Origin: an uncultured Thermoproteales archaeon
Lineage (GTDB): Archaea; Thermoproteota; Thermoprotei; Thermofilales; B20-G17
Direction of reading: 5' to 3'
Assembly (NCBI GenBank): GCA_965368245.1
Contig: CBDUMD010000006.1
Span: 10,217-74,216 of the forward strand
DNA length: 64,000 nt
A program made the translations under genes and the position numbers. Shown in pieces: positions 7,694-34,490 of this stretch (position 1 is its first letter; every line of letters begins with the position of its first letter). The notes below the pieces were generated by a model that did not search any database, was not told where the DNA came from, and saw nothing but the letters and a program-made list of their open reading frames with translations.

Positions 7694-10600
7694 TTATCTT
7701 CTCGAGCTACGTAGTATTAGTTTCCTCTCCTCCTCCCATGACTTTAATATATCGTTTATGGTTGTGGCTACCCTATCCATGTATTGTACTGGTATCTCTT
7801 TTTCGCCGGAGGGTTTACAGTAGAGTTCAATGCGGTAGACCTTCTCTTTGGGGCTTTTAGTGCATTTAATCTCGTTTTCAGTAATTATCCTCTTTTCCTT
7901 CTCCATGATAAACGTGTATCTGAAGAAGAACCTTTTGACTAGGGTTCCGTCGGGTAGCTCTTCTTCTTCAAGTTCCTCTAGATTCACTACTCTTTCCCTA
8001 TAGCCGGTCATAATGTCCCTTAACCTCGTGTACAGGAAGGAGAAGAATATCAAGGCTTCATCTTCCTTGACCTTGGTGGAAAATAGATACGTTTTTCCAG
8101 CATAGGTTTTAAGTATCCTTTCTTCCCGTTTGATCTTCTCCTTTTCTTCAACCTTAACCCTTCTTACCTTTGATGGAGTATACATCATGGCTGCATTAAG
8201 CGCTGGCTTGAAGGATGCTATCATTGCAACCAGTATTGATATAATTATGGCAAGTATGCTCCAATACCATTCAAGCTTCTCCCTTACCAGGAGATTTTGT
8301 GTACGTGCCGTAATGGACATTATACGGAAGGTCGTTATCCCTGCAATGTATCCTAATCCGCCTGAAATAAGCCCGTATACTATGGATTCGGCTAGAAACA
8401 GTAGTGCTATATGCATGGGGTTGAAACCAATCGCATTGAATATGAATATCTCACGTCTTCTTTCGTTCACTATACTATACATGGATAAAAGTACATTGAA
8501 TATTACTATTAGTATGGGCACTACGAAGTCTATGTTGCTTGTCAGAATGTTTTCCACTTTTTGTCCGAAGAAATATTTTAGACACCTGTCTCCCGTGTTG
8601 ATGTAAGCGAAATAGTTTTCACCCTTCCTTTCGATGAAGCTGGTGGCAAGGGACGTTAATGTATCCCGGTCCCCTAGGACGACTATCTTATATATTTGGA
8701 AAACAGACGAAATAGCAGCCTCCTTTTCTACTAGAACTTCCGTCAATAGATGCCTCCAATTCATGATCACTATGTCTGTTGAGTTGGCGGGTAAAAGCTT
8801 GCCTTTAACGCTGATAAATGGTTTTAGGGGTTCCCCGTCTATGTCGACTATCTTGTCAAGCTTGTCCTCGTCGAATATCCCAGCCACAGTATACGTTTCC
8901 TCTACAGGTATTTCGACACCGGGCCTATAGACCCTTAAGGTTACTTTATCTCCTACATCGACGCCAAGCTGCGTGGCAAGTGAAAATGGAATATATATGG
9001 AATCTGGTTGAGCCAGGGCTTCGAGGCTTCCTTTAACCAGTATTTTCGATATACCGGTTATTTTGTCTTCTACAGGTGCTAGTCCAAATATAGCTTTCAG
9101 GTTGGATACCCTGACTCCCTTCCCTTCTACTTCGATCACCAGCATTTGAGCTGGATTATTGTACACCCGTGGCGACACGTTTTCCGCACCTACTTTTTCG
9201 ACGAACCACTCGTAGTCGGAGAAGTATCCTAATGCACCTGGGATGCTTTCATTTATCGTATATTTGGCTAAAAGGGATGTTGTGGGAACATAAACGGGGT
9301 TTTCCTCGCTCCATACACCGTATACGGAGGATATCGATGCAAGTACCGTGAAAGCCCATATTAAGGCGGAAAGCGAGAAAACTGTGATGAGTGTACGTGT
9401 CTTCTTCAGCTTTGAAAACCTCTTAGCTATTGAAAATGTCATAGCCATTATAGCGCCCTTACGTATGGCTCCAGGTAGTTCAGCCTCCTTTATGTGTCTA
9501 GGCAGATAGAATATCAGGAAGGTTATCCCTAGGAATGACGACAGCACAGCTGCAAGAAACAGGTCACGTTTATTCTCCCATAGTAATGTGAATCCTGGAT
9601 ATGAGTAGGAGAATAATAGTAGGAGGAGGGCATAAAATGCTAGGAATGAATATAGCTTCTTTCTAGGATCCTCGTAGAAGTAGTATGCCATGACTACGGC
9701 GAAAACTGCAATAAAGTAAGATAAAATAGGTGCACCCTCAAGAGCTACTGTTTTGAGGAAGAATATTCTTCCAGCGACATTCTGTGTGACGATTACAAAG
9801 GCTTTCTCAAGCTTTTCTAAAATCACATCGGGTGGGCGGCCGCTTTCATACGATAATTGTGCCTCCTCGACAAGCGATAAAGCCCGTGAAAGCTCTGCTC
9901 TTTCGGGAGCAAGGTAGAATCCCATGTTCTCGAACTGCTCTATGAGCTGCTCGGCTGTCTGAACATCCCTTCTAACTTCTTCGATTATCCTTCCAAGCGA
10001 CTCATACTCCATGTCAAAGCGCGTCAAAGCTCCCGCTTCAAGTCTTAGAGGGTTTAAGGGGTCTCCGATCGTGAACACAAAGCGGTGGGCAAACTCCCTT
10101 AAGAAAGGCTCACTTCTGCGGTCAAAGACCCTTGTCTCAATGCTTACTATTGCATCGATTCCTGCAGGGATTATAACTAAGTTTTCGTCGAAAACTCCTG
10201 CTGGCAATACACCTTCCTTTACTCCCCTTCGGTAGTAGATTTTAATACCCCTTCCGCTACCGTAGGCATCTATGATCTGGGGCTTAGTTTTTATGATACC
10301 TTCTTGTGACTCCCTAGTATATGTTACTTCGCCTGAGTCGAGTACTTTTCCTATTTCAACGCCTTCCGGCGTGAGGACGATGGCACTATAGAATCCACTC
10401 CATTCTCCCCCAACGTATCTTATAACGCCTTCCACCTTTACAAAAGCTGCCGGATAAACTATTAAGGTGAGGTTCACTTCTATTAAATCCTTTACAAGCA
10501 ATTCAACCATTTCAGGTATGTGACTGAAGCCGCTTTCATCCTCCCTTAACGGGTATACTACGATTCTATAGAAGCGACCTCTCTCTAAGGTCATCTCGAA

Positions 10601-10825
10601 ATATCCATTTTCATCGCTTTTCGTGAAGTTGCCTATGGCATAGTTAGTGTCGTAGGCTACTATTATGGTGTTAGTGTGGGGTTTACCATCAGAGGTCAAC
10701 ACTCTTCCTCTTACAATAACCTGTTGCGGCCTACCCGTCGCTGGTAGTGTTGATGTAATTAAAGATAGTCCTATTATGATTATCATTATAATTGATATTA
10801 TTCCTATTTTACCATATTTCCTCAA
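7694..10825 (-). CDS. Giant FtsX/MacB-type permease fusion (CarboxypepD_reg-like ectodomain, 3 TM, FtsX 4-TM module, ~160-aa cytoplasmic tail)
   Basis: There is a signal anchor, then a carboxypeptidase-regulatory-like beta-sandwich (RGRVLTSDGKPHTNTIIVAYDTNYAIGNFTKSDENGYFEMTLERGRFYRIVVY). MacB-type TM1 is preceded by basic residues (AKRFSKLKKTRTLITVFSLSALIWAFTVLA), followed by a ~250-aa loop. The FtsX core is VNERRREIFIFNAIGFNPMHIALLFLAESIVYGLISGGLGY. The tail is 161 aa. Confidence 0.8.
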   Translation of the reverse strand: MRKYGKIGIISIIMIIIIGLSLITSTLPATGRPQQVIVRGRVLTSDGKPHTNTIIVAYDTNYAIGNFTKSDENGYFEMTLERGRFYRIVVYPLREDESGFSHIPEMVELLVKDLIEVNLTLIVYPAAFVKVEGVIRYVGGEWSGFYSAIVLTPEGVEIGKVLDSGEVTYTRESQEGIIKTKPQIIDAYGSGRGIKIYYRRGVKEGVLPAGVFDENLVIIPAGIDAIVSIETRVFDRRSEPFLREFAHRFVFTIGDPLNPLRLEAGALTRFDMEYESLGRIIEEVRRDVQTAEQLIEQFENMGFYLAPERAELSRALSLVEEAQLSYESGRPPDVILEKLEKAFVIVTQNVAGRIFFLKTVALEGAPILSYFIAVFAVVMAYYFYEDPRKKLYSFLAFYALLLLLFSYSYPGFTLLWENKRDLFLAAVLSSFLGITFLIFYLPRHIKEAELPGAIRKGAIMAMTFSIAKRFSKLKKTRTLITVFSLSALIWAFTVLASISSVYGVWSEENPVYVPTTSLLAKYTINESIPGALGYFSDYEWFVEKVGAENVSPRVYNNPAQMLVIEVEGKGVRVSNLKAIFGLAPVEDKITGISKILVKGSLEALAQPDSIYIPFSLATQLGVDVGDKVTLRVYRPGVEIPVEETYTVAGIFDEDKLDKIVDIDGEPLKPFISVKGKLLPANSTDIVIMNWRHLLTEVLVEKEAAISSVFQIYKIVVLGDRDTLTSLATSFIERKGENYFAYINTGDRCLKYFFGQKVENILTSNIDFVVPILIVIFNVLLSMYSIVNERRREIFIFNAIGFNPMHIALLFLAESIVYGLISGGLGYIAGITTFRIMSITARTQNLLVREKLEWYWSILAIIISILVAMIASFKPALNAAMMYTPSKVRRVKVEEKEKIKREERILKTYAGKTYLFSTKVKEDEALIFFSFLYTRLRDIMTGYRERVVNLEELEEEELPDGTLVKRFFFRYTFIMEKEKRIITENEIKCTKSPKEKVYRIELYCKPSGEKEIPVQYMDRVATTINDILKSWEEERKLILRSSRR

Positions 10826-10960
10826 AGTTTAAGCACCTCTAATCTCTAGCTACTTTCAAAAACACTTCTAGAAAAATAAGTTTTTCTACGCTAAAGTACA
10901 TAAAACTCATCGACTTGATGATTAACGGCTAAGAAAATTCAAATTAATATATTCGGTACA

Positions 10961-12724: not shown

Positions 12725-12759
12725 CGTAGTCAGCCTCCTTTACAGATACCGGAAGGCTG

Positions 12760-13314
12760 CTACTCTAGTGTTGCATGTCTCTTTAAAATATAGTCTTCGC
12801 CCCTACCAAGCCTTCTCATAAGTTCCGAGGATATGCTGTCAACAACAGCTAAGACGGCTATATCGAATAGGGAGGTGAAGGGGGCATACGACTCCCTTTC
12901 CAGAAGCTTTGTTTTACCAGGAACCCTTAAAATATGATGCGCAAGGCTGGCTAAGGTTCCCTTAGGATTGGCGGTGATGGCCACGATTTTAGCCCCAAGT
13001 TCAAGAGCTTTCCTAGCCATACAGACACTGGAGGCGGTTTCCCCACTACCAGATACGATCACCACTAGGTCTCCTATACCACAACCGGGGGTAATCGTTT
13101 CCCCTATATAGTAGGCGTCTAATCCAATGTGCATTAACCTTTGCGTAAAACATCTGGCAATGAATCCAGACCGGCCTGCACCATAGCAGAAAATTTTCTT
13201 GGCGTCAAGTATTAAATTAATTAGAGCTTCAACTTCATTGAAGTCTATTTCATCCTTCACTATCTCTAGATGCTCAATTATTTCTTCAAGTGAAAGATAG
13301 AATACGTTCGTCAT
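12760..13314 (-). CDS. SIS-domain sugar-phosphate isomerase (6-phospho-3-hexuloisomerase-like)
   Basis: The 184-aa ORF carries FCYGAGRSGFIARCFTQRLMHIGL...VVIVSGSGETASSV...GAKIVAITANP, the typical single-SIS PHI/HxlB-like pattern. Confidence 0.7.
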   Translation of the reverse strand: MTNVFYLSLEEIIEHLEIVKDEIDFNEVEALINLILDAKKIFCYGAGRSGFIARCFTQRLMHIGLDAYYIGETITPGCGIGDLVVIVSGSGETASSVCMARKALELGAKIVAITANPKGTLASLAHHILRVPGKTKLLERESYAPFTSLFDIAVLAVVDSISSELMRRLGRGEDYILKRHATLE

Positions 13315-13385: not shown

Positions 13386-14642
13386 TTAAGATAAAGGCTC
13401 CACCCTAACTCCTTCGTCGACCTTTACAACGAAGCCCCTTGAAGCCCCGGCTTTCATGGACTCCTTTATCACTCTCCTGCCAATACCTTCATCCGGCACT
13501 AACGCAATAAGTGAACCGCCAAGCCCCGCACCACTTATCTTCACCCCCAACGCACCAGCCTTTAGAGCACGCTCCCTTATTTCCTCGAGTTTAGGGAGGC
13601 TAACATCATATAAGTCCCTTAGAAGCTCATGTTGCTTGTTAATTATAGCACCTAGAAGATCCAGTTTCCCCTTTAGGGAGGCTAATTGTATCCCAAATGT
13701 TTCTAGGGTTTCGCTAAGCTTAAACGGATCCTCCCCTTCCATTATCTTTAAAGCAACTTCCGTTAACGTGTTCATCAAAATTGTGAATTTTATCCTCTTT
13801 GCCGATACTGGGTTAACCTCCTTAAGATAGGGCTCTAATTCTTCAAGCGATAATTCATCCCACCTGGGTTCATCGTACCTGTACCCTAGTTTGACCTTGA
13901 TGTGGTCCGGGACCCTTGGATTTTCCATTAATGTCTTTAATCCCTCATTTATTTCTTGTTGTCTTTTTGGATGTATCTCAACTGTTGCATGCCTTATTCC
14001 AGAATCTAGTACAACTAAATTAAGGTCCTTGAAGGGTATCTTCTCCACGTTGAAGGGTGGCTTTGTATAAAGCTTTATTACTCCCCCATATGCGGATCCA
14101 TATTGATCCAGTCTCCCACAGGGGATTTTTAATTCATCGTGTTCCGCTGTAAAAGATACTTCTGCAATATCTTTAACTGATAAGACCAGCCCGTACTCTA
14201 CGTTTAGCAGATGGGCAAACGCTACCTCAAGGGCAGCACTGCTTGCCAGCCCCGAAGCCACAGGGACATCGCTTATAACTACGACTTTCAAGCCGTAGGG
14301 AAAATATATACCTAGCTTCCTGTTGAACGCACGTACTATGCCCCTGAAATAGTTTCCGAACCAACGCCCCCTCCTCAATTTAGGTTTATTTACTGGGAAT
14401 TTGTCGCGGTAAACCCTACCCTCATTCTTAAGGTTGAGAGATTCCACCGAGAAGAATTTCTCGTCCCTGCCGAGGACGAACATATAGGTTCTTAAGTTAA
14501 TTGCCACAGGTACGACAGGTAAACCCTTATAATCTTGATGCGTGTTGAGGAAATCTGCTCTACCCGGGGCTGAGGTGCATAAAAGACCCTTCGACCCATA
14601 TTCTTGTTCTATAACCTTAATTTTTTCATGCAATGCCTCCAT
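13386..14642 (-). CDS. galK: Galactokinase (GHMP kinase)
   Basis: It has a galactokinase-like N-terminal signature GRADFLNTHQDY, GHMP motif 2 PVASGLASSAALEVA and motif 3 ISGAGLGGSLIAL. GGGGGTG lies upstream of the ATG. Confidence 0.85.
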   Translation of the reverse strand: MEALHEKIKVIEQEYGSKGLLCTSAPGRADFLNTHQDYKGLPVVPVAINLRTYMFVLGRDEKFFSVESLNLKNEGRVYRDKFPVNKPKLRRGRWFGNYFRGIVRAFNRKLGIYFPYGLKVVVISDVPVASGLASSAALEVAFAHLLNVEYGLVLSVKDIAEVSFTAEHDELKIPCGRLDQYGSAYGGVIKLYTKPPFNVEKIPFKDLNLVVLDSGIRHATVEIHPKRQQEINEGLKTLMENPRVPDHIKVKLGYRYDEPRWDELSLEELEPYLKEVNPVSAKRIKFTILMNTLTEVALKIMEGEDPFKLSETLETFGIQLASLKGKLDLLGAIINKQHELLRDLYDVSLPKLEEIRERALKAGALGVKISGAGLGGSLIALVPDEGIGRRVIKESMKAGASRGFVVKVDEGVRVEPLS

Positions 14643-17615: not shown

Positions 17616-19535
17616 CTAGTAGGGTAGGACCCATAATGCTTTGGGTACGAACTGCAGTGCCACGAAAACTACGGCCCATATGGAGAATCCCATCATTACA
17701 CCGCTGTAGAATAGGTAGGCTGCGTTGGTCAACTCCTCTCCTTTGGCTCCATAGATTCTTGGAAGAATAATGTAACGTATAATGGATCCTATGGCCTGTG
17801 GGATGAGCCCAGCATATGCAATATTGTTGACGGTCATGCCAGCTAATATCGATGGGGCTAGCCACGGGATCTTAAGGAAGAAGCCTCCGAGGAAGAGCGC
17901 CGCCCCCGCTATGAATCCAGCCACCACCAAGTTCCACTTAAATATATTGTAGGAGGAGTAGATTTTAATCCATGTAGCTCGGTTTATAACCTCGTTTTCC
18001 CATGCTGTTAAGCCAGGGTATAGCGCCGAGGGTATGGGGGCAAATGACCAGTAAATACTGTACATTACTATGCCTACAACAATCGCTGCCATTGTTGCAA
18101 TAACATAGAGTGTAATGTAGTCTCTAAACTTTACTCCAAGTTGATAGCATTGCAGAAAGGTTCCCGTCCAGCCCGAAGCATTGCTTACAGGAATGAGGTC
18201 GGTGAACATTAAGGGTGAAGCAAACCATATTGAGATTGGAGCGTTTCCGCCAGCCCCCAAAACCAGCACAGCTTCCTTTAGATAAGGTATGTTTACAGGT
18301 GTGTAGCCGGTTATACCTAGGAGCCCTGTCCATACATATGATAGGATAAAGGACATTATTAACGTGAGGAAGATTAGTGGTGGTAGAGGGTATCCGGTTA
18401 ACAGGCTTATGACAATTGCTGAAAGTATTGCACAGCTGGCAAAAAGGGTGAAGAGAGACCATCCACTAGTAATCTTGGATTCACCTTTGAGCTTAAATGC
18501 TCTTGCAAGGGCCTTAGGGGATAAGAGTACAGGTAGAATTCCCAGGGCCATAGCAAACCCGAATATAACACTAACCCAAAAGTTCAATGTACTGTAGTAT
18601 ATTGCATCGGCTGTCTGCATTCCACGGGTCCATCCCCTTAATATCAAGCCTGGAGAGGGGGGAACATGCCTCCAAATGCCTTTAATCACCAGTATGTGGT
18701 TTCCGAAAAAGTAGAGGGAGAGGGCTCCTATAGCCATGGTCACCGTAACATACCAGGGTATTATTAGCCCCTGGAAGAAGCCCAGAGGATAAATGGCTAA
18801 CGAAGCCCCGGGGAACATGTTTTCTATCACGTAGTTTAAATCATACATCGACACGGAGAGAAGCCCGAGGCTATTAAATATACCCAATATAAGTCCAGTT
18901 AAAAGGGAGAATATGAATATCCTATACTGTTTTTTAAATGCAGGGTCGGCTGCTTCACCTAGGGTCGTTAAGGCCGCTACGAACGCCGATTGAACAGGGA
19001 ATTCAAGCTTCTCCTCTATGACTCTTACCCTGAAGAACAGGTATCCTAGAGACATCTCCATTATCATCGAGACTATGACCACAAAGAGTATTACGGAAAG
19101 TACTGGCATCCAGGCTGGGTGAATCAATGTCCTTACACCGTTATCCACCAGCATTATAGCGCTGGAAGGGGCCCACCATTCGGGCGGTTTAATGCCGAAG
19201 GATATCCGCGAGGGACTTTTAACAAAATAGTATACCCATGGTATTGACTGGAAGAGAACAGCTAACCCCAATACCCTGTCGACTATGGTTATTGCGAACA
19301 ACTCCTGTTTAGATAAAGGTCTTTCAGAGTACCTAGATACCTCCGCCAATATTATGATGATAATAGTGGAGGAGACCACGCCGTAGAATGCCTGGGCACC
19401 CCATTGTACGAAGCCAAACGCTAGACCGAAAGTAAGGTTACCCCATATGAGCATGGGCTCCAGTACGAAGAGGGCTAGGAAAAGGGATAGGAGAACCCTC
19501 CAGGTGAATATGGTAGCACGAGCCTCACTTCCCAT
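17616..19535 (-). CDS. Polytopic membrane protein (~16 TM), putative permease with weak OPT-superfamily resemblance
   Basis: The 639-aa ORF is almost entirely hydrophobic helices. The motif EEKLEFPVQSAFVAAL resembles the OPT L-x-FP-x-G/A motif. It is a paralog of 25826-27895 (compare IERIPFPEATLYSTLI, and C-termini RYIILPRIYG / KYIVLRFYG). GGTGAT lies upstream of the ATG. Confidence 0.6.
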   Translation of the reverse strand: MGSEARATIFTWRVLLSLFLALFVLEPMLIWGNLTFGLAFGFVQWGAQAFYGVVSSTIIIIILAEVSRYSERPLSKQELFAITIVDRVLGLAVLFQSIPWVYYFVKSPSRISFGIKPPEWWAPSSAIMLVDNGVRTLIHPAWMPVLSVILFVVIVSMIMEMSLGYLFFRVRVIEEKLEFPVQSAFVAALTTLGEAADPAFKKQYRIFIFSLLTGLILGIFNSLGLLSVSMYDLNYVIENMFPGASLAIYPLGFFQGLIIPWYVTVTMAIGALSLYFFGNHILVIKGIWRHVPPSPGLILRGWTRGMQTADAIYYSTLNFWVSVIFGFAMALGILPVLLSPKALARAFKLKGESKITSGWSLFTLFASCAILSAIVISLLTGYPLPPLIFLTLIMSFILSYVWTGLLGITGYTPVNIPYLKEAVLVLGAGGNAPISIWFASPLMFTDLIPVSNASGWTGTFLQCYQLGVKFRDYITLYVIATMAAIVVGIVMYSIYWSFAPIPSALYPGLTAWENEVINRATWIKIYSSYNIFKWNLVVAGFIAGAALFLGGFFLKIPWLAPSILAGMTVNNIAYAGLIPQAIGSIIRYIILPRIYGAKGEELTNAAYLFYSGVMMGFSIWAVVFVALQFVPKALWVLPY

Positions 19536-24010: not shown

Positions 24011-24011
24011 T

Positions 24012-25655
24012 TTAACCACCTGAAACAGAAATCTTCAAGCCTTCTCCTCCAAAAACACTCCTCATATACCTTAAGACCGTTACAGCATCTTCATTTAATA
24101 TCAATCTTACCGCAAAAAGATAACTATACGTACCTTCATCTAAAAGAACAAAACCTCTCGGAACAACCTTCCTTTCAGAAGCATAAGGTTCTGCATTAGG
24201 ATCCTGACCATCGTAACATAGCATACGTTCATGTATGCCTGCTATAAAGACTAAGTCTGCGGCTGGATCGTTGGAAGGCACCTCTCCAAGCCAATCGTAC
24301 CACGGGAACTTGTGTAAAGTTATATGCCAGTAGCCGAGAGGATTAGCAGGATCGTTCCCCAACAGCATTATACCCACCCCTTCATCATAGTCTCTAAGGG
24401 CTGCAACAGGGTGCTTTATCCAAAGGTCGTTTCCAGGGTATGGTGGAGAATAAAGGTCCCCTGTATCTGTTAAAAAGAACAATGCACGCCAAACAGAAAG
24501 CTGGGGGATAGCCATGTTGCCCATACCCGATGGATTATAGTATCTGTAGTCGGCTTCACCCGGAGCGGGTTTACCAGCGTTAGGTCCAACTGTAAATTCA
24601 TGCGTAACGTACACGACTGCACGGTAAAGCATGTAAGGGCGATTCACCGGCACAGCAAAGAACTCGTACGTATAACCCTCGGTTTTAAGGTTCCATCTTC
24701 TAGCGTAGACGGCGAAAAGCGGGCCAACCGAGTCTATCCACATTTTTGTTTTCATCAAATACGCGTACATTTTTCCGTTGCCGTCATCGAAGTAGGCGTC
24801 GATCATCCCATGAAAGAAGCTGAGACCAGACCTTGTGGAGTTGGCGGGTCTATACATTTTTGCGAAATTGACTTCTTCACTCCCAAAGTAGTCTATGTTG
24901 CCGTGGTAATATTCTGTCTCGTTGAAACGTACTTTAATAACCCCGTTGTAGATCACAGTATACCCCTCAAACCTTTCAATCTTCAAGCTAGGTGTAGAAG
25001 AATTAGAGTAGGAGGATTCTTCTCCAAAAACAATAGTGAAGCTTTTTAATCCACCAGGAGGGACCTCTAAGGGGAAGCTTATTACTGCTGTTTTTACGTA
25101 TCCCGACTGGTATGTTACTATGCCCCACATCTGGTTTAATACTTCAACACCGTTTTCATCCAAAACCCTAACCTCGCCAGGCTTAACCTCACCATCAGCA
25201 AAAAACAGTTCGAAGCTAGCGATCTCATCCAACGGCTTGTTTTCATAGTTCTCGAAAACTACGTTTATTTTAGTTAGCGTAGGGGATTTTTTCTTTACCT
25301 CGACCCTACCCTGACTGGTGTCTATCGAAATCGTATATTCACCGCCATTCCATGGGTAATAAATTTCAATGTATTTTGTTTCGCCAGGATATATGATGAT
25401 CCATCTTGAAGACCACGATGAAAAGCTTACACCGTTAACTGAAACAGCGTTTATGGTAACATTATCGTTACCTTTATTCTTCAAGTAAACCCTTATGGTC
25501 CTCAGGATCTTCCATCCATCGTTCTTAACCAAAAATTCTACCCTTTCAATGGATACATTTACCTGTGAAAACGGGTTATAAATAAATACAAAACCAAGCA
25601 CAAGTAATAAAATTACTGCAGAAACCATCAATACTGTTTTTGAGGGAAATTTCAC
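24012..25655 (-). CDS. N-terminally anchored extracellular beta-sandwich protein (no family recognised), paralog of 32868-34490
   Basis: There is a TM/signal anchor (TVLMVSAVILLLVLGFVFIY), then a CARDB-like segment (LKNKGNDNVTINAVSVNG). Long blocks are collinear with the 540-aa paralog (NQMWGIVTYQSGYVKTAVISFPLEVPPGGLKSF vs SQMWGIVTYESGYVKTAIISFHVSIPPGGEKTF). The start is GTG, preceded by AGGGGGTGTG. Confidence 0.6.
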   Translation of the reverse strand: MKFPSKTVLMVSAVILLLVLGFVFIYNPFSQVNVSIERVEFLVKNDGWKILRTIRVYLKNKGNDNVTINAVSVNGVSFSSWSSRWIIIYPGETKYIEIYYPWNGGEYTISIDTSQGRVEVKKKSPTLTKINVVFENYENKPLDEIASFELFFADGEVKPGEVRVLDENGVEVLNQMWGIVTYQSGYVKTAVISFPLEVPPGGLKSFTIVFGEESSYSNSSTPSLKIERFEGYTVIYNGVIKVRFNETEYYHGNIDYFGSEEVNFAKMYRPANSTRSGLSFFHGMIDAYFDDGNGKMYAYLMKTKMWIDSVGPLFAVYARRWNLKTEGYTYEFFAVPVNRPYMLYRAVVYVTHEFTVGPNAGKPAPGEADYRYYNPSGMGNMAIPQLSVWRALFFLTDTGDLYSPPYPGNDLWIKHPVAALRDYDEGVGIMLLGNDPANPLGYWHITLHKFPWYDWLGEVPSNDPAADLVFIAGIHERMLCYDGQDPNAEPYASERKVVPRGFVLLDEGTYSYLFAVRLILNEDAVTVLRYMRSVFGGEGLKISVSGG

Positions 25656-25825
25656 GAATCACACCCCCTGGGCGGGAGCCTAGCTCGGGCATTCATTCTA
25701 AGGAAACCCTCAAACTACAATATAAAGTTTTCCGAAAAAGCCTCTTGAAAAGGGGTGTACGTTAATATATGGTCACAGGTAAATTGTGTATAGAATCTAG
25801 ACAAAACAAAAAATATACTTAGTTT

Positions 25826-27895
25826 TTAGGGTATGTAACCGTACCAGCGTAAGGCAAGGTACGTTCTTCTAAACACGCTTACGACAGTGAAGCCTCCCAG
25901 GAATCCTACACAGAACGGAACGATGTATTTAGTGTAGGGCGATGAGCCGTAGAATCTGAGTACAATATACTTTATTATCCATGCTACAAGGATGGGGAAA
26001 GCTCCGCCAGTCGCGTTGTCTATAACACCCCACGATGTTCCCATCACTACGCCGACTGGATTGAGGAACGCCAGTGCTGGAACCATTGTGCGGACGACCA
26101 TTAACACAGCAACTATTATTATTCCTATGAACCATCTAAGCGCCTGCTCATAGACTGGTATTCTGTAGAGCATCCATCCCTGGGGATCCACGATTCTAGG
26201 ATCATCGATGCCCCAGTTTACCACGAACCATTTAACGTAGCTTGGGATGTTGTTGAAGCCTACGCTGTAAACCAGGTTTATCATGTAGAGGAAGGTTACG
26301 ACAACCACTATTATTGCTGCAATGAATCCGACTAGGAATATGTCTCTGGAGTCGGTTTTAGTGTCCGCGCCGACTTTAAATGCCATCATGGCGTTGGCTA
26401 GGGTATGGCTGGTGTTTCCGTTGCATCCCCAGACCTCTATCGTAGCGTACGACATAAACATTGTGGTAAAGGCGTTTGGATCTACTGATCCAAGGTCAGA
26501 TACGTAAAACAGGTTTGATGCCGTCCACGGAATAACCAGTGCATCGTATTCGCCGTGCATGGGGAATATACCGAATTCAGCATAAGCCCTCGAAAAGCCT
26601 AGGAACCAGATTATTACTATTATTGGAAGTATGAAAGCAGACCACACATTGGCTCCCATGGCTAGAAATAGGGCAAACATCATGATGAAGCCTATACCCA
26701 GGAGAAGATATGCCACCGTGTAGCTTACTGGTTCACCAGGTTCCCTAGGTGCTCTTTTTACGGCGGCATCGAAGGTTCTTCTAATATACTTCCACGACAA
26801 AAACAATGGAACTATGCCTAGACCAAGGATTTCACCGAAGTAGATGTTTCTCATGGATATCGGTAGGTTCCAGACAATGTAATTGAGCGCGTTGTGGAGG
26901 GTGCCGGGGTCTGTGGGAAGTATACCCATGTAGTATAATATGGGTGGTAGTACGAAGTATACTATATACCAGACCAGCCATGTGGAGAACAATACGTCGA
27001 GCGGCACGAGGAGGAAGAAGGTAACCCAGTTCGGCGAGATACTTATAAGGGGATAGCTTCCTGGAAGAACGGTGTCCAATCCTAGAACGGACTTAAAGTC
27101 TGTTCTGACATATCCATGTAACATGCCCCAGTCAACCCAGCCATACCATATGGTTAAGATATGGGGTAGACGCCAAAGAATTCCAGCCAGTATGCCTACG
27201 AAGATCATCTTTATGAAAATCTTGTTTTCTGGTTTATCGGTGCTTGTGGAAGTTATTAGTGTGGAGTATAATGTGGCTTCAGGGAACGGTATTCTTTCAA
27301 TCTCTATCCACTGTTTTCTTAGGATGGAGCCTAGACCCATAAACAATATAAGCCAGCCGATATAGAAGGTTAGCCACATTGCTATTGGACCGCTAAGGGC
27401 ACCCCACGGTGTGGGTCCTCCATCTGCTGCCATATTGTATAGCTCTGGGCTAGGCATCCACCATATGCTGGGTCTAAGGTATGATAAAGCTTCGTAGCCT
27501 CCATGTGCCAGAGCAAAGAATAAGCCCATGCTGGGCCAGTAGAAGAACCATCCCCATGCCGTTGAAAGCTGTATTGCTGCAAATATCATGGCAAATTCCT
27601 TTTCATTTAAATATAGTCTTCTCCCCGCTTTTCCCGAGAGAACTTTCAGAACGTAGTTTACTACAGCCAATATGAGCATTGCCGGAAGTACACGAACCAC
27701 TCTCGGTATAAGGGTGTTCCAACCCCATCCAGCACCATTATAGTCGATGGAGCCAAGCCACCCAGTTACGCTGGCCAGCTGAGGGGCATAAGTCCCCCAT
27801 ATATTGTAAAACGTTATTATCAGTGAAATTATTATTGCCAAAATTAATGGCACTATTGGAAAAGCCTTCCTAACCTCAGTTTTAGGAGCGGACAT
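25826..27895 (-). CDS. Polytopic membrane protein (~16 TM), paralog of 17616-19535, putative permease
   Basis: The 689-aa ORF is very hydrophobic and Trp/Tyr-rich. It shares motifs with the 639-aa protein (see that entry). AGGGGGTG lies 9 nt before the ATG, with TATA-like elements 50-75 nt upstream. Confidence 0.6.
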   Translation of the reverse strand: MSAPKTEVRKAFPIVPLILAIIISLIITFYNIWGTYAPQLASVTGWLGSIDYNGAGWGWNTLIPRVVRVLPAMLILAVVNYVLKVLSGKAGRRLYLNEKEFAMIFAAIQLSTAWGWFFYWPSMGLFFALAHGGYEALSYLRPSIWWMPSPELYNMAADGGPTPWGALSGPIAMWLTFYIGWLILFMGLGSILRKQWIEIERIPFPEATLYSTLITSTSTDKPENKIFIKMIFVGILAGILWRLPHILTIWYGWVDWGMLHGYVRTDFKSVLGLDTVLPGSYPLISISPNWVTFFLLVPLDVLFSTWLVWYIVYFVLPPILYYMGILPTDPGTLHNALNYIVWNLPISMRNIYFGEILGLGIVPLFLSWKYIRRTFDAAVKRAPREPGEPVSYTVAYLLLGIGFIMMFALFLAMGANVWSAFILPIIVIIWFLGFSRAYAEFGIFPMHGEYDALVIPWTASNLFYVSDLGSVDPNAFTTMFMSYATIEVWGCNGNTSHTLANAMMAFKVGADTKTDSRDIFLVGFIAAIIVVVVTFLYMINLVYSVGFNNIPSYVKWFVVNWGIDDPRIVDPQGWMLYRIPVYEQALRWFIGIIIVAVLMVVRTMVPALAFLNPVGVVMGTSWGVIDNATGGAFPILVAWIIKYIVLRFYGSSPYTKYIVPFCVGFLGGFTVVSVFRRTYLALRWYGYIP

Positions 27896-29036: not shown

Positions 29037-29987
29037 CTAACCTGTTTCCAGCTCCTCCAAGAGACTTGTAACAGTAAGTTCAACGGATTCCCGGCTATTG
29101 TGTTTTGGAGTCCATCCAAGTTTTCTAAGCTTTTGCACGCTTAAAAGCATGTACTTTACATCTCCCTTCCAGCCCCGCCCTCCATCAACGCCCCCAGTAG
29201 TGTAGAGTTCAACGTTTTTTAATCCCATTTTATCTACCACTATCTTAGCGATATCCATTACAGATACGGAGTCTTCAGATCCTATATTAAATACATCGTA
29301 TTCCTTCTCGACGCTCCTCCATAGGAATATTGTCGCATCTACAGCGTCGGTGACATAAAGATAGGATTTTCTCTGAGTTCCATCCCCCAGAATTTCTAGT
29401 CGTCTTGGATTCCGTTTAAGTTTCATTATGAAATCGTATATTACGCCATGCCTCAATCGGGGACCCACGATGTTAGCGTATCTGAGAGATAGGCCTCTAA
29501 GACCGTAGGTGTGAACATAGGACGATATCAGGGATTCGCATGCGAGTTTAGAAGCCCCGTAAACGGATATTGGTTCAAGGGGGGTATAGTTTTCAGGTGT
29601 TGGCATGACTTTAGCGTCACCGTAAACCGTAGACGAGGATGCAAACACTATATTTCTTACATCGTATTTCCTCATAGCCTCAAGAACTATAAAGGTACCT
29701 AGAATATTGTTTTCAAAGTGGACTCTTGGTATACCTATCCTAACTTCCGGGTTAGCGGCGTAATGGAAGACCGTATCACAATCCTTTACTGCTTTCCACA
29801 CATCCCTAGTCCTTCTTATATCCCCCTTAATTAAACGAAAGTTTCTATGTTTTAATGCATGCTTCAGGTTGTCGGTCGTCCCAGAGGTTAGGTTGTCAAG
29901 GCATACAACTTCGTACCCCTCCGCTAAGAGTCTATCAACCAAATGGCTTCCAATGAATCCAGCTCCACCTGTAACGAGAACCTTCAT
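29037..29987 (-). CDS. galE: UDP-glucose 4-epimerase (NAD-dependent epimerase/dehydratase)
   Basis: It has the Rossmann motif [17 protein letters not shown] and the catalytic YGASK (YxxxK). It is 316 aa and sits immediately upstream of galT. Confidence 0.8.
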
Positions 29988-30148: not shown

Positions 30149-32818
30149 TTAAATTATTTTTATTTTAGGTGATATACATACTACGTGGTCGTAGTGCGGT
30201 GTTCCGGCTGAATCCACCATTAAACCTAGTTCAAAGCTTTTCCCAGAGTATTTGCTTAAATCTAGCTTGATGTCTACGAGTCGCCCGTCGTATTTTTTAT
30301 ATGTTTCATAAAGCTTCTCAACCGCTTTACCTTCCTTAGCCAATATAGAGAACTTTATACCATCACTTTTTTCCATCCCATGCTTAAATCCGACCTTAGC
30401 CTCGAAAACGGCTTTCCTATGAGGTGGTAGCACTACTTTAAACCATCCTCTTATGAATCCACCCTCAACGCCTTTAGGATGTAGGTAAAGACACTTTTCC
30501 TCCCCGCCCTCCTCGTTTTTCACAATGGTTATCCTGTTTATACCTTCAGCCCAAAAAGCATTTCCCCACTTTAATGTGCCATCGTTGTTCTCCCATATCG
30601 CTTCTTCAGCAAGCTCCATTAAATCTATCTCGTTTAGATCAAACCTTAAGTACCATTCAACTTCGGGTCGTGTAAGCTCAAGCTTCAACTCTAAGAAACC
30701 TTCCCGCACCTCTACTCCACTTGAAGCTTCTTTTAGACTATAGTTTCCGGGAACATAGACTAGTATTGTCGCCTTTTTACGGCCTATATTCCTTAATGTG
30801 CCCCGGAGTTCCATAGTGTAATCATTCCAGGATGTGTTTTTAAGGTCCAGAAATCCCTGGGTTATATGTGTGTCAACCGATATAACTTGGGGTCTATGAA
30901 GAAGGGGTTTAAAGGCTATAATCTTGCAGGATGTTGGAGGCAGTTTAACTATCATCTTTTTTCTATACACTCCTAGGAGCTTTTGTTCCCAAAAATCAAA
31001 TGCAATATATCTTCTGTCATTGAAGCCTAGTTTCTCGAAATCGAGGACTACTATATCTGGTTCATCGCTCCAGTTGAACACGCCTATGACATATTCTTCG
31101 TCCCCGATTTTAAGTCGCCATACTTGGGGGGTATCCGATTTAAAGAGATCCAGGGGCTCTGCATGGACTCCGGTAGGTGGGAAAATTTTCTCCAGTATGT
31201 TCAGTCGTTCTTCCTTAAGTTTATACAGTATATCGCTGTGCATCGTCACGCCGCCTGAAAGGGCGACTATTGAAGCCCATGCCCTTGCCTGATCTAAAGT
31301 CAGAGGCTCTCTAACTATGATACAGTCGGGATCGTTATGCCATATCGTTTTATGTAAGTGGAATCTTCTAGCAACATACCTTGTGCACAGTGCAATCCAA
31401 CTCCATTCCGTGAAAATATCAGCTCCTATCCTCATTCCATCAACATACTCTATGCTGTAGTTTAGGGGTGCTCCGCAACCTAGAATATACACCTTGTCTC
31501 CAACTGCCTCCCTTATAACTTTTAGTGCATTACGGTATGCTTCCACCACCGTGGTTTCTTCGTTAAATCGTTTTCCAGGAATGGTGGAGTAGTGGAGGAA
31601 ATCTATTTTAATGTACTCGTAGCCCCAGTCTTCAACTATCTTCTTGAAAAGTTTATGAAGCCAGTTTAGAACTTCGGGGTGGGTTAGATCTAGAGCGTAT
31701 ATCTTCAGGTTACCCCATCCCGTGAAAGCGACCTTAGGTTCATTTGTTTTACTGTCTTTTACAAGCCAGTCTGGATGATTCTTGTATATGGTTGATTCAT
31801 GGCTTACTATGAAGGGGGCCAGCCAGAGACCTGGCTTAAGTCCCTTTTCTTTAATCCTGTCTGCAAGCCATTTCATTCCATGTGGAAACTTCTCGTTTGG
31901 TTCCCATTCGCCTATTGTCTGCTCCCATCCATCATCTATCTGAAAGAAGGCTCCATCTACTTTTCCAAAGAGCCGTGCTGCTAAATCAATATTCTTCAGG
32001 ATCTCCTCCTCGCTGATGTTCAGGTAGTATTCGTACCATGAGCACCAGCCGGAAGGAGGATTAAATTTATATCTTGGAGGGTGGTTTAGGGCAAGAAGTT
32101 TCGCATACATTTTCATTGCAGAGAGCCAGTCTCTACAATAAACTACTGCAAGGGTTTCGGTTTGAATGCTAGTAACTTTTCCATCTTCCACATTACACTC
32201 AGCTGTAAGCACAGGTTCATGGTCTTTCGGCCACTCTAGCTTAACAGTTGTGCCCCACTTTCTGGAGGTGATGAAACCTACAACCATCCCATCGTTTACC
32301 CTGATGTTACTTAAAGCTATGTTCCAGGGAGAGTCACCCGAACACCCTTCACATACCTTAAACCTTTTGGGTAACGCCCAAGAGTGGTAATTATCTGCAA
32401 TAGCATACGTTTCCCCCATGAATGTCGCATATGGTATGGTGCTCTTTAAGAGAAGAACCTTATTTACCGCACCCTTGCTAAGGGTAATGTTTGACTCTAT
32501 GGTTAATAACGGTTTCTCGGCATAGAACTTCAAATTATATAATATATATAATGTATTATTACTAAAAACTGCAGTTATCTTTTTTCCATAACCAAGATTA
32601 TCTTTAAATTCGTCAATGGAAACGGAAGGTGTCATCTCTTTACACGTATGTGTTTTTTCAGCTGTCTCCACGGAGACCTCCGATGACCGTATAAGCCAGC
32701 GACCATCTTTTGTAGCAAGCCCCCAGGTTCCCGTTGAGGGGTTGATGAAAAGTTTAAGCCATTGGTTTTCAAGGATTATTTCTCTCTCTTCTTTAAATGT
32801 GGATTTAACTTTAGGCAT
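30149..32818 (-). CDS. GH36 alpha-galactosidase with ~190-aa C-terminal extension
   Basis: The melibiase pattern is present: WCSWYEYY, FFQIDDGWE, GLKPGLWLAPF, YIKIDFLH, GCGAP and WHNDPDC. No signal peptide is visible. The extra C-terminal beta-rich region begins after ~aa 700. Confidence 0.85.
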   Translation of the reverse strand: MPKVKSTFKEEREIILENQWLKLFINPSTGTWGLATKDGRWLIRSSEVSVETAEKTHTCKEMTPSVSIDEFKDNLGYGKKITAVFSNNTLYILYNLKFYAEKPLLTIESNITLSKGAVNKVLLLKSTIPYATFMGETYAIADNYHSWALPKRFKVCEGCSGDSPWNIALSNIRVNDGMVVGFITSRKWGTTVKLEWPKDHEPVLTAECNVEDGKVTSIQTETLAVVYCRDWLSAMKMYAKLLALNHPPRYKFNPPSGWCSWYEYYLNISEEEILKNIDLAARLFGKVDGAFFQIDDGWEQTIGEWEPNEKFPHGMKWLADRIKEKGLKPGLWLAPFIVSHESTIYKNHPDWLVKDSKTNEPKVAFTGWGNLKIYALDLTHPEVLNWLHKLFKKIVEDWGYEYIKIDFLHYSTIPGKRFNEETTVVEAYRNALKVIREAVGDKVYILGCGAPLNYSIEYVDGMRIGADIFTEWSWIALCTRYVARRFHLHKTIWHNDPDCIIVREPLTLDQARAWASIVALSGGVTMHSDILYKLKEERLNILEKIFPPTGVHAEPLDLFKSDTPQVWRLKIGDEEYVIGVFNWSDEPDIVVLDFEKLGFNDRRYIAFDFWEQKLLGVYRKKMIVKLPPTSCKIIAFKPLLHRPQVISVDTHITQGFLDLKNTSWNDYTMELRGTLRNIGRKKATILVYVPGNYSLKEASSGVEVREGFLELKLELTRPEVEWYLRFDLNEIDLMELAEEAIWENNDGTLKWGNAFWAEGINRITIVKNEEGGEEKCLYLHPKGVEGGFIRGWFKVVLPPHRKAVFEAKVGFKHGMEKSDGIKFSILAKEGKAVEKLYETYKKYDGRLVDIKLDLSKYSGKSFELGLMVDSAGTPHYDHVVCISPKIKII

Positions 32819-32867
32819 GGCGTTGAAATAAAAATTTCCATTAATTTAACCTTTATGGTATACTTTA

Positions 32868-34490
32868 TCAATCCTTAAAACTTGCCTCTACAAGTAACGT
32901 GGCTTTCCTTTCAAGCATCTCCTGCAACTCCGTTGAAATACTCTTTTTGATAACTGCTTTCACCTTCATGACCCAGCTATATGTTCCAGGTTCAATGGAT
33001 ATTCCGTTCCCTCTCCAGGGATCCGACTGCTCCCCTGAATAACATAGCAGATATTTATGGACTCCAGCTATGAAGGACAAGTCTTTGGCATATTTGTAGC
33101 CTCCAATTTCACTGGTGGAGGGGGAGGGTTTGTCGCCTCCCCATATATGCCATGGAAACTTTTGTTTTGAAATATGCCAGTAACCTATTGGGTTGACCTC
33201 ATCGTTGGAAATCAACTGAACGCCTACACCGGTCTCATGGTCGACACATGATGCAATAGGTTTCTCGGCGGGAACATCCATACCTGGGTATAGGGGTGAA
33301 TAGATGTCTCCTTCAGCTGTAAGGAAGAAGTCTGCACCTTTAACTGCTAAGTGCCCTATAGCGAAGCTTCCCATTCCAGCGGGATTATATATCGTGTATT
33401 CTCCCTCGCCTGCTAATGCCCCCAATCCAATATTCTTTACAGCATCGATAACAAACCTATAGTATATTGATGTACTGTTTTGCGGTATAGCGTAAAAGTC
33501 GTACGCTGTCCCCAGGTCCCTGAGCTTCCATGAGCGCTTCACAACCACTAGTAACGGACCTTTAGATTCTATGGAGATTTCCGTCTTCATTATTATGGCG
33601 AACATTTTTCCGCTGGAGTCGAGAACCGAGTCTAGGAAACCGTGGAAGAAGTAGAGTTCGGAGAGGGTGGCTTCAGGTGGTTTAAATATTTCAGCGAAAT
33701 TGTAGCTTCCTTCCACATCCCCGAAATAGTCTATGGAGCCGTGATATCTATCACTGTTATTAAAGCCTACTATAATACGGCCGTTAATCACCCTGATATA
33801 CTCATCGCTCTCTTCAACTAAAATATTAGGGTTACTTTCATATGCTTTAGGCTCAACTCCAAGAGTTATAGCGAAGGTTTTCTCGCCACCAGGTGGAATC
33901 GACACATGAAAGCTTATTATAGCTGTCTTAACGTACCCGCTCTCATATGTCACTATACCCCACATTTGGCTCGCGACTTCCTCGCCGTATTCGTTGAATA
34001 CTTTAATGCCCTTGGGTTTACACTCCCCATCCGAGAAATACGTCTCAAAGGAGAAGACGCCTTCCCATACATCTCCACCGACGTTCGTAAGCTTCAGCAG
34101 TATTTTGCTGAACTGTGGGGACTTAGCCTTCAGTATACCTTCTCCACCGCTGGTAGATATCTTCACAGAATACTGTGTCGAGCTTTTCCATGGATAATAG
34201 ATATAGATGAATGTAGATTCTTTGGGCGTCAGAACCCTACTTCCACTAGTCCATCGGTTTACCGATTTACCGTTTACCTCGACACCTGTGATCGTTACAT
34301 TTTCAGAGCCTGTATTAGTGATCTTCGCTTTGATGACCCTGGATATCCTCCATCCTTCTACGTTAACCTCGAAGGAAAGAGACTCTACTGAAATATTGGA
34401 TCGACTTTGCAGAGACATGTATAGGAAAGCGCCTAAAGCCACCAAGAAAATAGTTATCAAAACTAAGAGAACCTTGATCTTAAATTGCAT
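32868..34490 (-). CDS. N-terminally anchored extracellular beta-sandwich protein, paralog of 24012-25655
   Basis: It has a TM anchor (KVLLVLITIFLVALGAFLYM) and ITNTGSENVTITGVEVNG, and is collinear with the 547-aa protein. GGAGGGAAGG lies before the ATG. TATA-like CTTATATACATT lies ~50 nt upstream. Confidence 0.6.
   Translation of the reverse strand: MQFKIKVLLVLITIFLVALGAFLYMSLQSRSNISVESLSFEVNVEGWRISRVIKAKITNTGSENVTITGVEVNGKSVNRWTSGSRVLTPKESTFIYIYYPWKSSTQYSVKISTSGGEGILKAKSPQFSKILLKLTNVGGDVWEGVFSFETYFSDGECKPKGIKVFNEYGEEVASQMWGIVTYESGYVKTAIISFHVSIPPGGEKTFAITLGVEPKAYESNPNILVEESDEYIRVINGRIIVGFNNSDRYHGSIDYFGDVEGSYNFAEIFKPPEATLSELYFFHGFLDSVLDSSGKMFAIIMKTEISIESKGPLLVVVKRSWKLRDLGTAYDFYAIPQNSTSIYYRFVIDAVKNIGLGALAGEGEYTIYNPAGMGSFAIGHLAVKGADFFLTAEGDIYSPLYPGMDVPAEKPIASCVDHETGVGVQLISNDEVNPIGYWHISKQKFPWHIWGGDKPSPSTSEIGGYKYAKDLSFIAGVHKYLLCYSGEQSDPWRGNGISIEPGTYSWVMKVKAVIKKSISTELQEMLERKATLLVEASFKD

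Follow-up and report, generated by a model that had tools for sequence, protein, structure and literature searches.

We report that giant FtsX-type permeases and a polytopic permease related to the oligopeptide transporter (OPT) superfamily, here called B, form, with or without a second OPT-like permease (A), an uncharacterised gene unit that is widespread across both Archaea and Bacteria, and that an uncultured Thermoproteales archaeon encodes three such giants within a galactoside gene array. The array lies in a window of 64,000 nucleotides (nt) of contig CBDUMD010000006.1 (assembly GCA_965368245.1, positions 10,217 to 74,216 of the forward strand); coordinates below are those of this window, that is, the whole stretch of DNA that was analyzed. 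A first-pass annotation of the same DNA had proposed a so far undescribed archaeal apparatus for the capture, processing and uptake of glycans at the cell surface. Our analysis confirms what that annotation observed and supports part of its interpretation. The membrane proteins of the array are listed below, with lengths in amino acids (aa).

19547..24019, minus strand: giant 1, 1490 aa; Peptidase_M28 48.8, FtsX 53.7 and MacB_PCD 23.4 bits
14682..17600, minus strand: giant 2, 972 aa; FtsX 36.9 and MacB_PCD 40.1 bits, CarboxypepD_reg
7694..10825, minus strand: giant 3, 1043 aa; FtsX 43.2 bits, weak CarboxypepD_reg match, own promoter-like element
25826..27895, minus strand: permease A, 689 aa, DUF6785 (102.3 bits); polytopic, predicted branch of the OPT superfamily
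17616..19535, minus strand: permease B, 639 aa; polytopic, predicted member of a divergent OPT-superfamily family that has no Pfam model
32868..34490, minus strand: 540-aa anchored protein, paralog 1; one N-terminal transmembrane (TM) helix, no Pfam match, upstream of the glycoside hydrolase family 36 (GH36) gene
24012..25655, minus strand: 547-aa anchored protein, paralog 2; 8-nt overlap with the start of the 1490-aa giant, no Pfam match

Scanning a single genome for each GTDB species with a five-sequence alignment of giants (A3), we obtained 414 stretches encoding a giant relative, in Archaea and Bacteria; the system is therefore not specific to archaea as first proposed. The best 80 of these stretches (43 archaeal and 37 bacterial loci, designated by L numbers) were taken into a census based on their open reading frames (ORFs) and phmmer, in which the labels A and B rest on best phmmer E-values. 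Within the best 80, the archaeal loci belong to Thermoproteota (Thermofilaceae, Desulfurococcaceae, Bathyarchaeia, Brockarchaeota) and one Heimdallarchaeon, and the bacterial loci to Armatimonadota (Chthonomonas, Capsulimonadaceae), Latescibacterota, Omnitrophota, Ratteibacteria, a Gemmatimonas metagenome-assembled genome (MAG) and a Firmicutes MAG. The census gave the following counts, in which ABC stands for ATP-binding cassette.

B adjoining the giant: archaeal 39/43, bacterial 17/37
B present: archaeal 41/43, bacterial 26/37
A present: archaeal 22/43, bacterial 2/37
ABC ATPase within 10 kb, all loci: archaeal 3/43, bacterial 15/37
ABC ATPase within 10 kb, well-flanked loci (6 kb or more on each side): archaeal 3/15, bacterial 13/18

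These counts identify the giant plus B, with or without A, as the conserved core. The first-pass annotation had asked whether its protein families co-occur in other genomes: the giant does so widely with B, and the family of the 540-aa protein is confined to a small clade.

Close relatives of the window's array (L001, L009 and L014, from Thermoproteota MAGs and metagenome contigs) keep the arrangement at 56-68% identity, with a 540-type protein followed by GH36, GalE, GalT, A, an M28-bearing giant, B, a 972-type giant, GalK, an SIS-domain protein, PfkB and a 577-aa protein. The GalK-SIS order is kept in L009 and L014, and in L009 GalK overlaps the giant by 4 nt. Another contig type, L007, carries A, a 539-aa protein, a giant, B and a second giant, and has an ortholog of the 547-aa protein at the same position. 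On a Latescibacterota chromosome (OZ244937.1; L080:7475-~19000) the genes run as a tandem of A, giant, A, giant, with neither B nor an ABC ATPase within 10 kb.

All three giants match FtsX above its Pfam cut-off of 25.5 bits. MacB_PCD (cut-off 27 bits) is exceeded in the 972-aa giant only, the 1490-aa giant scoring below it (23.4 versus 27); the cut-off for Peptidase_M28 is 21.3 bits. Giant 3 has no Pfam MacB_PCD match and a weak match to the NCBIfam LolCE model at residues 463-654. The 1043-aa and 972-aa giants are 24% identical across 1082 aligned columns spanning their full length, and the 972-aa and 1490-aa giants are 25% identical over 576 aa from the first TM cluster on. Each giant had first been described as ending in a single module of four TM helices. 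Hydropathy and an AlphaFold2 (AF2) model of the 972-aa giant correct this to a predicted total of about eight, arranged as 1 + 3 + 1 + 3, with a cytoplasmic tail of about 150 aa behind them. Giant 1 would run from an N-terminal TM helix through a PA/M28-like ectodomain, three TM helices, a single TM helix, a MacB-type periplasmic core and a three-TM FtsX domain to the cytoplasmic tail, and giant 2 from an N-terminal TM helix through a CarboxypepD_reg beta-sandwich, a helical stalk, three TM helices, one more TM helix, MacB_PCD and a three-TM FtsX domain to an alpha/beta tail.

The AF2 model of the 972-aa giant (mean predicted local distance difference test score, pLDDT, 79.8; predicted TM-score, pTM, 0.64) comprises, from N to C terminus, a TM helix, a beta-sandwich ectodomain (residues 34-238), a long stalk, three TM helices, an amphipathic helix with TM5, an alpha/beta periplasmic domain (459-709), three TM helices and an alpha/beta tail (840-967). 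Searched against the PDB with Foldseek, it matched MacB (5gko, E 1.6e-11) and YbbAP (700 columns, E 5e-8), as well as LolCDE, the pneumococcal Spr0693-5-type transporter/5xu1, HrtBA and FtsEX, with TM-scores that are low because of the multi-domain arrangement. These matches show the giants, as modeled, to have the fold of Type VII ABC permeases (MacB/LolCE/YbbP). Searches by sequence in the PDB returned YtrF, MacB and LolC for the 1490-aa giant. A basic stretch precedes a TM helix in all three giants, as first annotated, and the ER(R/K/V)RE core that had been ascribed to each of them was recovered by a pattern scan in the 1043-aa giant (ERRREI...AIG) and the 1490-aa giant (ERVREI...SIG), with no match to the pattern in the 972-aa giant.

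The M28 and CarboxypepD_reg matches agree with the peptidase-like and beta-sandwich ectodomains that had been foreseen, except that the M28 region lacks the catalytic, zinc-binding Glu-Glu pair. This region matches the PA-domain aminopeptidase 2ek8 and 6hc6 by PDB sequence search, and FGAEENGLIGS of 2ek8 is aligned to FGGHWQYLAGP of the 1490-aa giant. Archaeal relatives keep GGH(W/H)Q, with H309 and Q311 invariant in alignment A3; bacterial members such as P0011 and P0012, read by eye, have also lost the Asp zinc ligand, one of them together with the His ligand. Since Glu-Glu is missing, the ectodomain is not a canonical peptidase, and its sequence is most readily interpreted as that of a non-catalytic PA/M28-like module. 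The transferrin receptor offers a comparable logic: its ectodomain is an inactive PA plus M28 fold without the catalytic Glu-Glu, membrane-anchored and presumed to act as a binding module. Giant 1 is not known to share a sequence relationship with it beyond the M28 fold.

Permeases A and B each show ~14-16 hydrophobic peaks by Kyte-Doolittle hydropathy. They had been annotated as two paralogs of ~16 TM segments, and their families, represented by 25 A-family (DUF6785) and 48 B-family (639-aa type) sequences, do align over their full length in hhalign (611 columns, probability 100%, E 8.9e-42), although the two window proteins are only distantly related in pairwise comparison (25% over 262 aa, E 2e-5). 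The 639-aa protein itself has no Pfam match; 16 of the 48 B members match Pfam OPT (best E 7e-18), and among A members 24/25 match DUF6785, 17/25 DUF6784 and 2/25 OPT (best OPT E 5e-15). Searches of PDB sequences with the A- and B-family profiles gave no informative match. Profile comparison assigns families A and B to the OPT superfamily as divergent members, B at the family level only, and this predicted kinship with transporters agrees with the earlier reading of the two polytopic proteins as permeases.

Pfam confirms that the giants are interleaved with galK, galT, galE and GH36, as first annotated. The enzymes and other soluble or anchored proteins of the array are the following.

30149..32818, minus strand: GH36-type alpha-galactosidase, 889 aa, predicted to be cytoplasmic; Pfam Melibiase 75.1 bits plus Melibiase_C
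29037..29987, minus strand: UDP-glucose 4-epimerase-like GalE; Pfam Epimerase 193 bits
28017..29036, minus strand: galactose-1-phosphate uridylyltransferase GalT; Pfam GalP_UDP_transf and GalP_UDP_tr_C
13386..14642, minus strand: galactokinase GalK, 39 nt downstream of giant 2; Pfam GHMP_kinases_N, GHMP_kinases_C and GalKase_gal_bdg
12760..13314, minus strand: SIS-domain sugar-phosphate isomerase-like protein; Pfam SIS 63.6 bits
10961..12724, minus strand: 587-aa protein with HEFHH and two TSP3-like DxDxDG repeats; no TM segment or Pfam match
6531..7607, minus strand: GH18 protein (GH85/EndoS-like) with an N-terminal TM anchor, 86 nt downstream of giant 3; Glyco_hydro_18 99.4 bits

Between 4634 and 43247, a range that includes the one-strand array first described at 7694-34490, every ORF of at least 100 aa that can be a gene lies on the minus strand. 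Intergenic gaps in the array range from -8 to 284 nt, and GGAGG/GGTG-type (Shine-Dalgarno-like) motifs precede many of its start codons, again as annotated. Along the run of the 547-aa protein, the 1490-aa giant, the 639-aa permease, the 972-aa giant, GalK, the SIS protein and the 587-aa protein the gaps are -8, 11, 15, 39, 71 and 35 nt, and GalE and GalT are separated by 0 nt. Promoter-like elements with BRE/TATA character were found as follows.

25721..25731, minus strand: AAAACTTTATA, 5' of the 547-1490-639-972-GalK unit
10874-10884, 27948-27958, 30022-30032, 32844-32854 and 34537-34547: similar elements, pattern AAARSTTWWWW

This pattern, derived post hoc from the same six gaps, has 15 matches in the window, of which six sit 26-76 nt 5' of minus-strand starts in the six largest gaps of the array, ahead of the 540-aa protein, GH36, GalE, the 689-aa permease, the 547-aa protein and the 1043-aa giant; the smaller gaps of the array contain none. 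With the caveat that the pattern was chosen after the fact, this suggests six transcription units with similar promoters. A first, stricter promoter pattern showed no enrichment. Given the small gaps from the 547-aa gene to GalK and the restriction of the promoter-like elements to the larger gaps, the giants appear to be co-transcribed with GalK in the window.

We tentatively propose, at a little under an even chance, that the window encodes a galactoside cluster with a built-in giant/OPT-like cassette, in which giants driven by an unlinked ATPase hand alpha-galactosides to the OPT-like permeases. The catabolic part would consist of the cytoplasmic GH36, GalK, GalT, GalE and the SIS protein, and the cassette of permease A, an anchored protein, the giant with the dead PA/M28 domain, permease B and the beta-sandwich giant, in this order, with the third giant accompanied by the anchored GH18. 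The giants would be ATP-driven mechanotransmission devices whose ATPase is encoded elsewhere in the genome; their ectodomains would bind an oligomer outside the cell, or keep a hydrolase at the surface, and pass the substrate to the OPT-like permeases, with A and B serving as translocation pathways powered by the proton gradient. In this role the ectodomains would replace the solute-binding protein (SBP) of classical archaeal sugar ABC importers. The cargo here would probably be an alpha-galactoside oligosaccharide, cleaved by GH36 in the cytoplasm and fed into the Leloir pathway. The GH36 protein has no N-terminal hydrophobic segment, and since neither it nor the MGH1-like glycosidases of the window carry signal sequences, their substrates must be imported. 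These MGH1-like/GH63-like glycosidases, three proteins of 766, 724 and 625 aa that all appear cytoplasmic, are encoded at 34775-47358, downstream of the array, in a stretch that also holds a secreted 792-aa Big_1/invasin-like protein, a JAB-domain protein and a DUF2204 nucleotidyltransferase. A broader form of the proposal, which we regard as rather unlikely, is a composite uptake machine in which a single-chain MacB-fold mechanotransducer captures extracellular oligomers with its dead PA/M28 or beta-sandwich ectodomain and feeds them to OPT permeases. In Archaea it would act as an SBP-free counterpart of polysaccharide-utilisation loci (PULs), recruited next to various CAZymes (GH36, GH31, GH38, lyases), and in Thermoproteota perhaps without a dedicated ATPase.

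In other archaea, different carbohydrate-active proteins flank the cassette. In L011 and L092 the cassette stands beside a GH38 gene and a gene for an alkaline-phosphatase-superfamily protein; a ~340-aa protein follows B in L011 (11958-12983), L019 (10697-11731) and L092 (16347-17393), that of L011 matching Phosphodiest and Sulfatase, and the GH38 alpha-mannosidase comes next in L011 and L092. In further archaeal loci the neighbor is a GH31 (L056), a heparinase II/III-like lyase (L087), a CBM_4_9 protein (L088) or a DUF6259 protein (L023). A conserved transporter cassette accompanied by variable carbohydrate-active enzymes (CAZymes) follows the logic of a PUL. In the window's clade the glycan link is borne out by GalK, which stands 39 nt behind a giant here and overlaps it in relatives.

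Several points weigh against the proposed galactoside route. Neither the 64-kb window nor its flanks of 8.8 kb before and 4.9 kb behind, which together cover ~78 kb of the 107.6-kb contig, yielded an ABC ATPase, and only 3/15 well-flanked archaeal loci have any ABC ATPase, one of them of an unrelated type. The physical coupling of giants to OPT-like permeases is something we infer from gene adjacency alone. To our knowledge, OPT transporters of known substrate carry peptides or metal chelates, not sugars. Archaeal neighborhoods are heterogeneous overall; CAZymes are absent from the top Pfam families of the bacterial neighborhoods, which instead feature PqqD-like proteins, redoxins (thioredoxin/AhpC-like), aminotransferases, pairs of M16 peptidases and Lgt. 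Genes for major facilitator superfamily (MFS) transporters, located at 4634-5827 and just upstream of the window, could encode the real sugar importers. Within the giant, modules 1 and 2 did not match each other significantly (hhalign E 0.18), so that the notion of a tandem FtsX, in which one giant may contain internally duplicated modules, draws on topology and fold only. The earlier claim of a glycan apparatus is plausible, given the apparent operon with Leloir genes here and the varied CAZymes of other archaea, but the bacterial loci show no sugar context.

The absence of a linked ATPase could mean that there is none. Under this alternative, which we consider unlikely, Thermoproteota have lost the ABC partner, and the giants work as passive scaffolds whose binding ectodomains stand beside proton-driven OPT-like permeases. 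The first-pass observation that neither an ABC ATPase nor an SBP is encoded in the 64 kb stands and extends to the ~14 kb of flanks: no window ORF of at least 150 aa matches ABC_tran, SBP or BPD_transp families in Pfam, and a six-frame scan found one Walker A motif, in an AAA_18 kinase-like gene (5937-6524), and no LSGGQ. An ABC gene lies within 10 kb in just 3/43 archaeal loci, and ATPase-free arrangements recur in Thermoproteota MAGs (Bathyarchaeia, Brockarchaeota), Ratteibacteria, Latescibacterota and Gemmatimonas. The conserved alpha/beta tail of ~150 aa after TM8 could occupy the cytoplasmic face, but it is present with or without an adjacent ATPase, members P0010 and P0012 having one. 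The ADOP family (NCBIfam TIGR03434) of duplicated FtsX-type permeases sets a precedent in its name, in which "orphan" refers to the lack of an adjacent ATPase gene. The giants match this family weakly (E 6e-7 to 8e-3) and, with 14-28 bits against a cut-off of 622, are not members of it; their ectodomains, taxonomic range and neighbors also differ.

Comparison with loci that do encode an ATPase argues against this loss. Among well-flanked bacterial loci, 13/18 have an ABC ATPase, and 11 of those 13 also encode a small FtsX protein of ~205-210 aa (mini-FtsX), a type that is absent from the window. ATPases are also encoded at the archaeal loci of the Heimdallarchaeon (L076) and of Bathyarchaeia (L018), and one of an unrelated type at L085. 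In L005, L095 and L096 the immediate neighbors of 972-type giants are a mini-FtsX gene and an ABC ATPase gene, and in L097 an M28-bearing giant, B, an FtsX-domain protein and an ATPase follow in a row. The system ATPases of Armatimonadota, L076 and L018 are 57-72% identical to that of L005 and form one tight orthogroup, to which generic MacB-type ATPases from a metagenome scan are 43-54% identical. This dedicated orthogroup occurs in archaea too (L005, L018, L076, L094-L096). The first-pass annotation had named an adjacent cognate ATPase and SBP in syntenic loci as evidence against its apparatus; ATPase and mini-FtsX do occur there, in bacteria and some archaea, and no SBP was found in the annotated syntenic loci.

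The Bathyarchaeia-like metagenome contig L094 encodes, at 5776-8082, two ATPases of the orthogroup and a mini-FtsX, with no giant within ~6 kb; one of these ATPases is 88% identical to that of L018. Unlinked arrangements of the ATPase and mini-FtsX pair therefore exist. A phmmer match named F540 had raised L094 as a representative of the window's own lineage, which was ruled out by BLAST, with no real F540 homology, and by the 88% identity of its ATPase to L018. A 108-aa protein encoded beside the ATPase pair of L094 is conserved with the Heimdallarchaeon L076. In at least 36/43 archaeal giants, nearly all without a linked ATPase, the motif ER..E[IV]......G[LM][SA]P is kept; going by FtsX-family structures, it presumably falls at the TM2-TM3 coupling helix. 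In YbbP the coupling helix contacts the ABC subunit (PMC12646458). The presence of an ATPase beside the cassette elsewhere and the retention of the ER..E motif indicate that the family is not intrinsically ATPase-less, which weakens this part of the first-pass annotation, and the ATPase of the window's archaeon is probably unlinked rather than absent.

The bacterial loci bring in another alternative. In Armatimonadota the giant and B are followed by a 337-aa protein without Pfam match, a PqqD-like protein of ~148 aa (of the type that recognizes ribosomally synthesized and post-translationally modified peptides), mini-FtsX and the system ATPase, an order seen in L026, L028, L030, L048 (for example L048:16484-19314), L050, L058, L071, L072, L074, L081 and L083. 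The PqqD-like genes, redoxins and M16 pairs near the Armatimonadota cassette point to a peptide-related role for the bacterial version. For the window, this would translate into the scavenging of peptides or glycopeptides, in which the OPT-like permeases import oligopeptides or glycopeptides and the glycosidases (GH18 of endo-beta-N-acetylglucosaminidase-like type, GH36, GH38, MGH1/GH63-like, GH20) strip glycans, a reading we find improbable. It would agree with the placement of A and B in the OPT superfamily, whose prokaryotic members lack biochemical characterization and are for the most part predicted peptide porters (PMC3061005), with the M28/PA aminopeptidase-like domain on a giant, and with the PqqD-like peptide-binding domain and M16 peptidases of the bacterial loci. 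The anchored GH18 (GH85/EndoS-like), the GH38 neighbors and the three MGH1-like glycosidases would fit the trimming of N-glycans, and in L004 a 551-aa homolog of the anchored proteins has a GH20 gene as its neighbor. The M28 domain, however, lacks its catalytic Glu-Glu, with further zinc ligands lost in bacterial members; the 27-kb array shows no active peptidase and no gene of amino-acid catabolism, and neither is represented among the 25 most frequent Pfam families of archaeal neighborhoods; and the tight operonic partners here are GalK and the Leloir genes. OPT subcluster 4C, for which xylo-oligosaccharide uptake has been predicted from gene context, is a precedent for context-based assignment of oligosaccharide-specific OPT members (PMC3061005).

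A last alternative is a role in the cell envelope. All characterised Type VII ABC systems act at the membrane's outer face and do not import (PMC12646458), and the cassette is kept across many phyla with unrelated neighbors, including Lgt, redoxins and PqqD-like genes near the bacterial version. It could serve a housekeeping task in envelope maintenance or export, such as pulling out or secreting an envelope component linked to lipid, peptide or glycan, as LolCDE, YbbAP-TesA and FtsEX do, the sugar neighbors being incidental. The GH18 may act as a hydrolase partner of the 1043-aa giant in the manner of YbbAP-TesA, and this combination of giant 3 with an anchored GH18 resembles the logic of FtsEX-EnvC as well. 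We nevertheless hold an envelope role to be very doubtful: relatives couple GalK translationally to a giant and preserve the Leloir/GH36 arrangement, different CAZymes stand beside the cassette in independent archaeal lineages, and OPT-family transporters of known function are importers.

The closest known counterpart of the giants is YbbAP-TesA of E. coli (PDB 9GE6-9GE8), with a single-chain permease of 4-TM MacB-type modules and large extracytoplasmic domains, its Porter and Sabre domains, an internal duplication and a partner hydrolase on the outer face (PMC12646458). YbbP differs in having 10 TM helices, two recognizable FtsX/PCD copies and the partner ATPase YbbA, whereas the giants have about eight and an FtsX/PCD recognizable in the second module only; their first loop is a beta-sandwich or PA/M28-like domain, a tail follows TM8, an OPT-like permease is the neighbor and the locus encodes no ATPase. 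With MacB, LolCDE and FtsEX the giants share FtsX and MacB_PCD, the ER..E motif and PDB matches in sequence and fold, and the ATPases of their relatives are of the LolD/MacB type. Those systems, in contrast, are built from dimerising 4-TM subunits encoded beside their ATPase, and we know of no protein of this type with an OPT partner, a PA/M28 domain or a location in a sugar operon. A and B resemble the OPT family (PF03169; TC 2.A.67), whose members have ~16 TM segments, in being polytopic proteins of 630-690 aa, with ~14-16 hydrophobic peaks, and in their family-level Pfam OPT matches; unlike it, the window's B has no Pfam match, A falls under DUF6785/DUF6784, and the pairing with an FtsX giant does not appear in the family survey (PMC3061005). 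Archaeal SBP-dependent sugar ABC importers and the SusC/D PULs of Bacteroidota are alike in logic only, an uptake cassette flanked by variable CAZymes and catabolic enzymes; their components are unrelated, and here there is no SBP, BPD_transp permease or TonB-dependent transporter.

Our literature searches gave no match for DUF6785 or for the combination of FtsX, OPT and M28, and nothing relevant on orphan FtsX or Chthonomonas; NCBIfam returned only far-sub-threshold matches for the cassette proteins. The near-obligate pairing of giant and OPT-like permease, the 8-TM giant with a dead PA/M28 domain and a tail, and the ATPase/mini-FtsX orthogroup are thus undescribed in the literature searched, in agreement with the first description of the apparatus as undescribed.

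The two anchored proteins are paralogs, as annotated (42% identity), and their family would be a tiny lineage-specific accessory of the cassette. A word-indexed search found five clusters and an exhaustive phmmer search of 1.84 billion proteins ten representatives, which limits the family to a small clade and runs counter to the suggestion that it accompanies the cassette more widely; the 551-aa homolog in L004 (10001-11656), beside the GH20 gene, has no giant nearby. Members of the family adjoin different glycosidase genes, GH36 in the window and GH20 in L004. The AF2 model of the 540-aa protein (mean pLDDT 48.9) is confident for residues 33-210 only, predicted to form two beta-sandwiches; the C-terminal 300 aa, conserved in the family, are unmodeled. 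Foldseek related its N-terminal helix and beta-sandwich to FlaG and AAP/archaeal pilin-like folds, and a functional reading of these matches was set aside as they cover that region only. NCBIfam gave a weak match to the bindosome protein BasC.

Two further claims of the first annotation concern the end of the array, and both were borne out. The 587-aa protein has the HExxH motif (HEFHH) and two TSP3-like repeats, predicted to bind calcium (DSDGDGIPD and DTDDDGLDD), with no clear signal peptide; in L009 and L014 the same relative place, behind GalK, SIS and PfkB, is taken by a 577-aa gene, a match by position only. The GH18 assignment is confirmed by its Pfam score, and the AAA_18 adenylate-kinase-like gene follows 6 nt after it. 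At the far end of the window, ~59000-64000 and the next 5 kb (L175:1-6300) contain many small PIN-domain and antitoxin-like genes and a Phage_int_SAM_1 fragment, and this region looks like an island of toxin-antitoxin genes and integrase remnants.

Taken together, the cassette combines known building blocks, Type VII ABC/FtsX permeases and OPT transporters, and the window would represent a case in which three giants were recruited into a galactoside operon. A cultured type strain exists for Chthonomonas calidirosea, to which loci L058 and L093 are assigned by their labels, and this species could make the function of the cassette experimentally accessible. Should the OPT-like partners import oligosaccharides, archaea would have a new way of taking up glycans, and this branch of prokaryotic OPT homologs would receive its first assigned class of substrates. 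Giants that function with no ATPase would challenge the view of the MacB fold as always ATP-driven.

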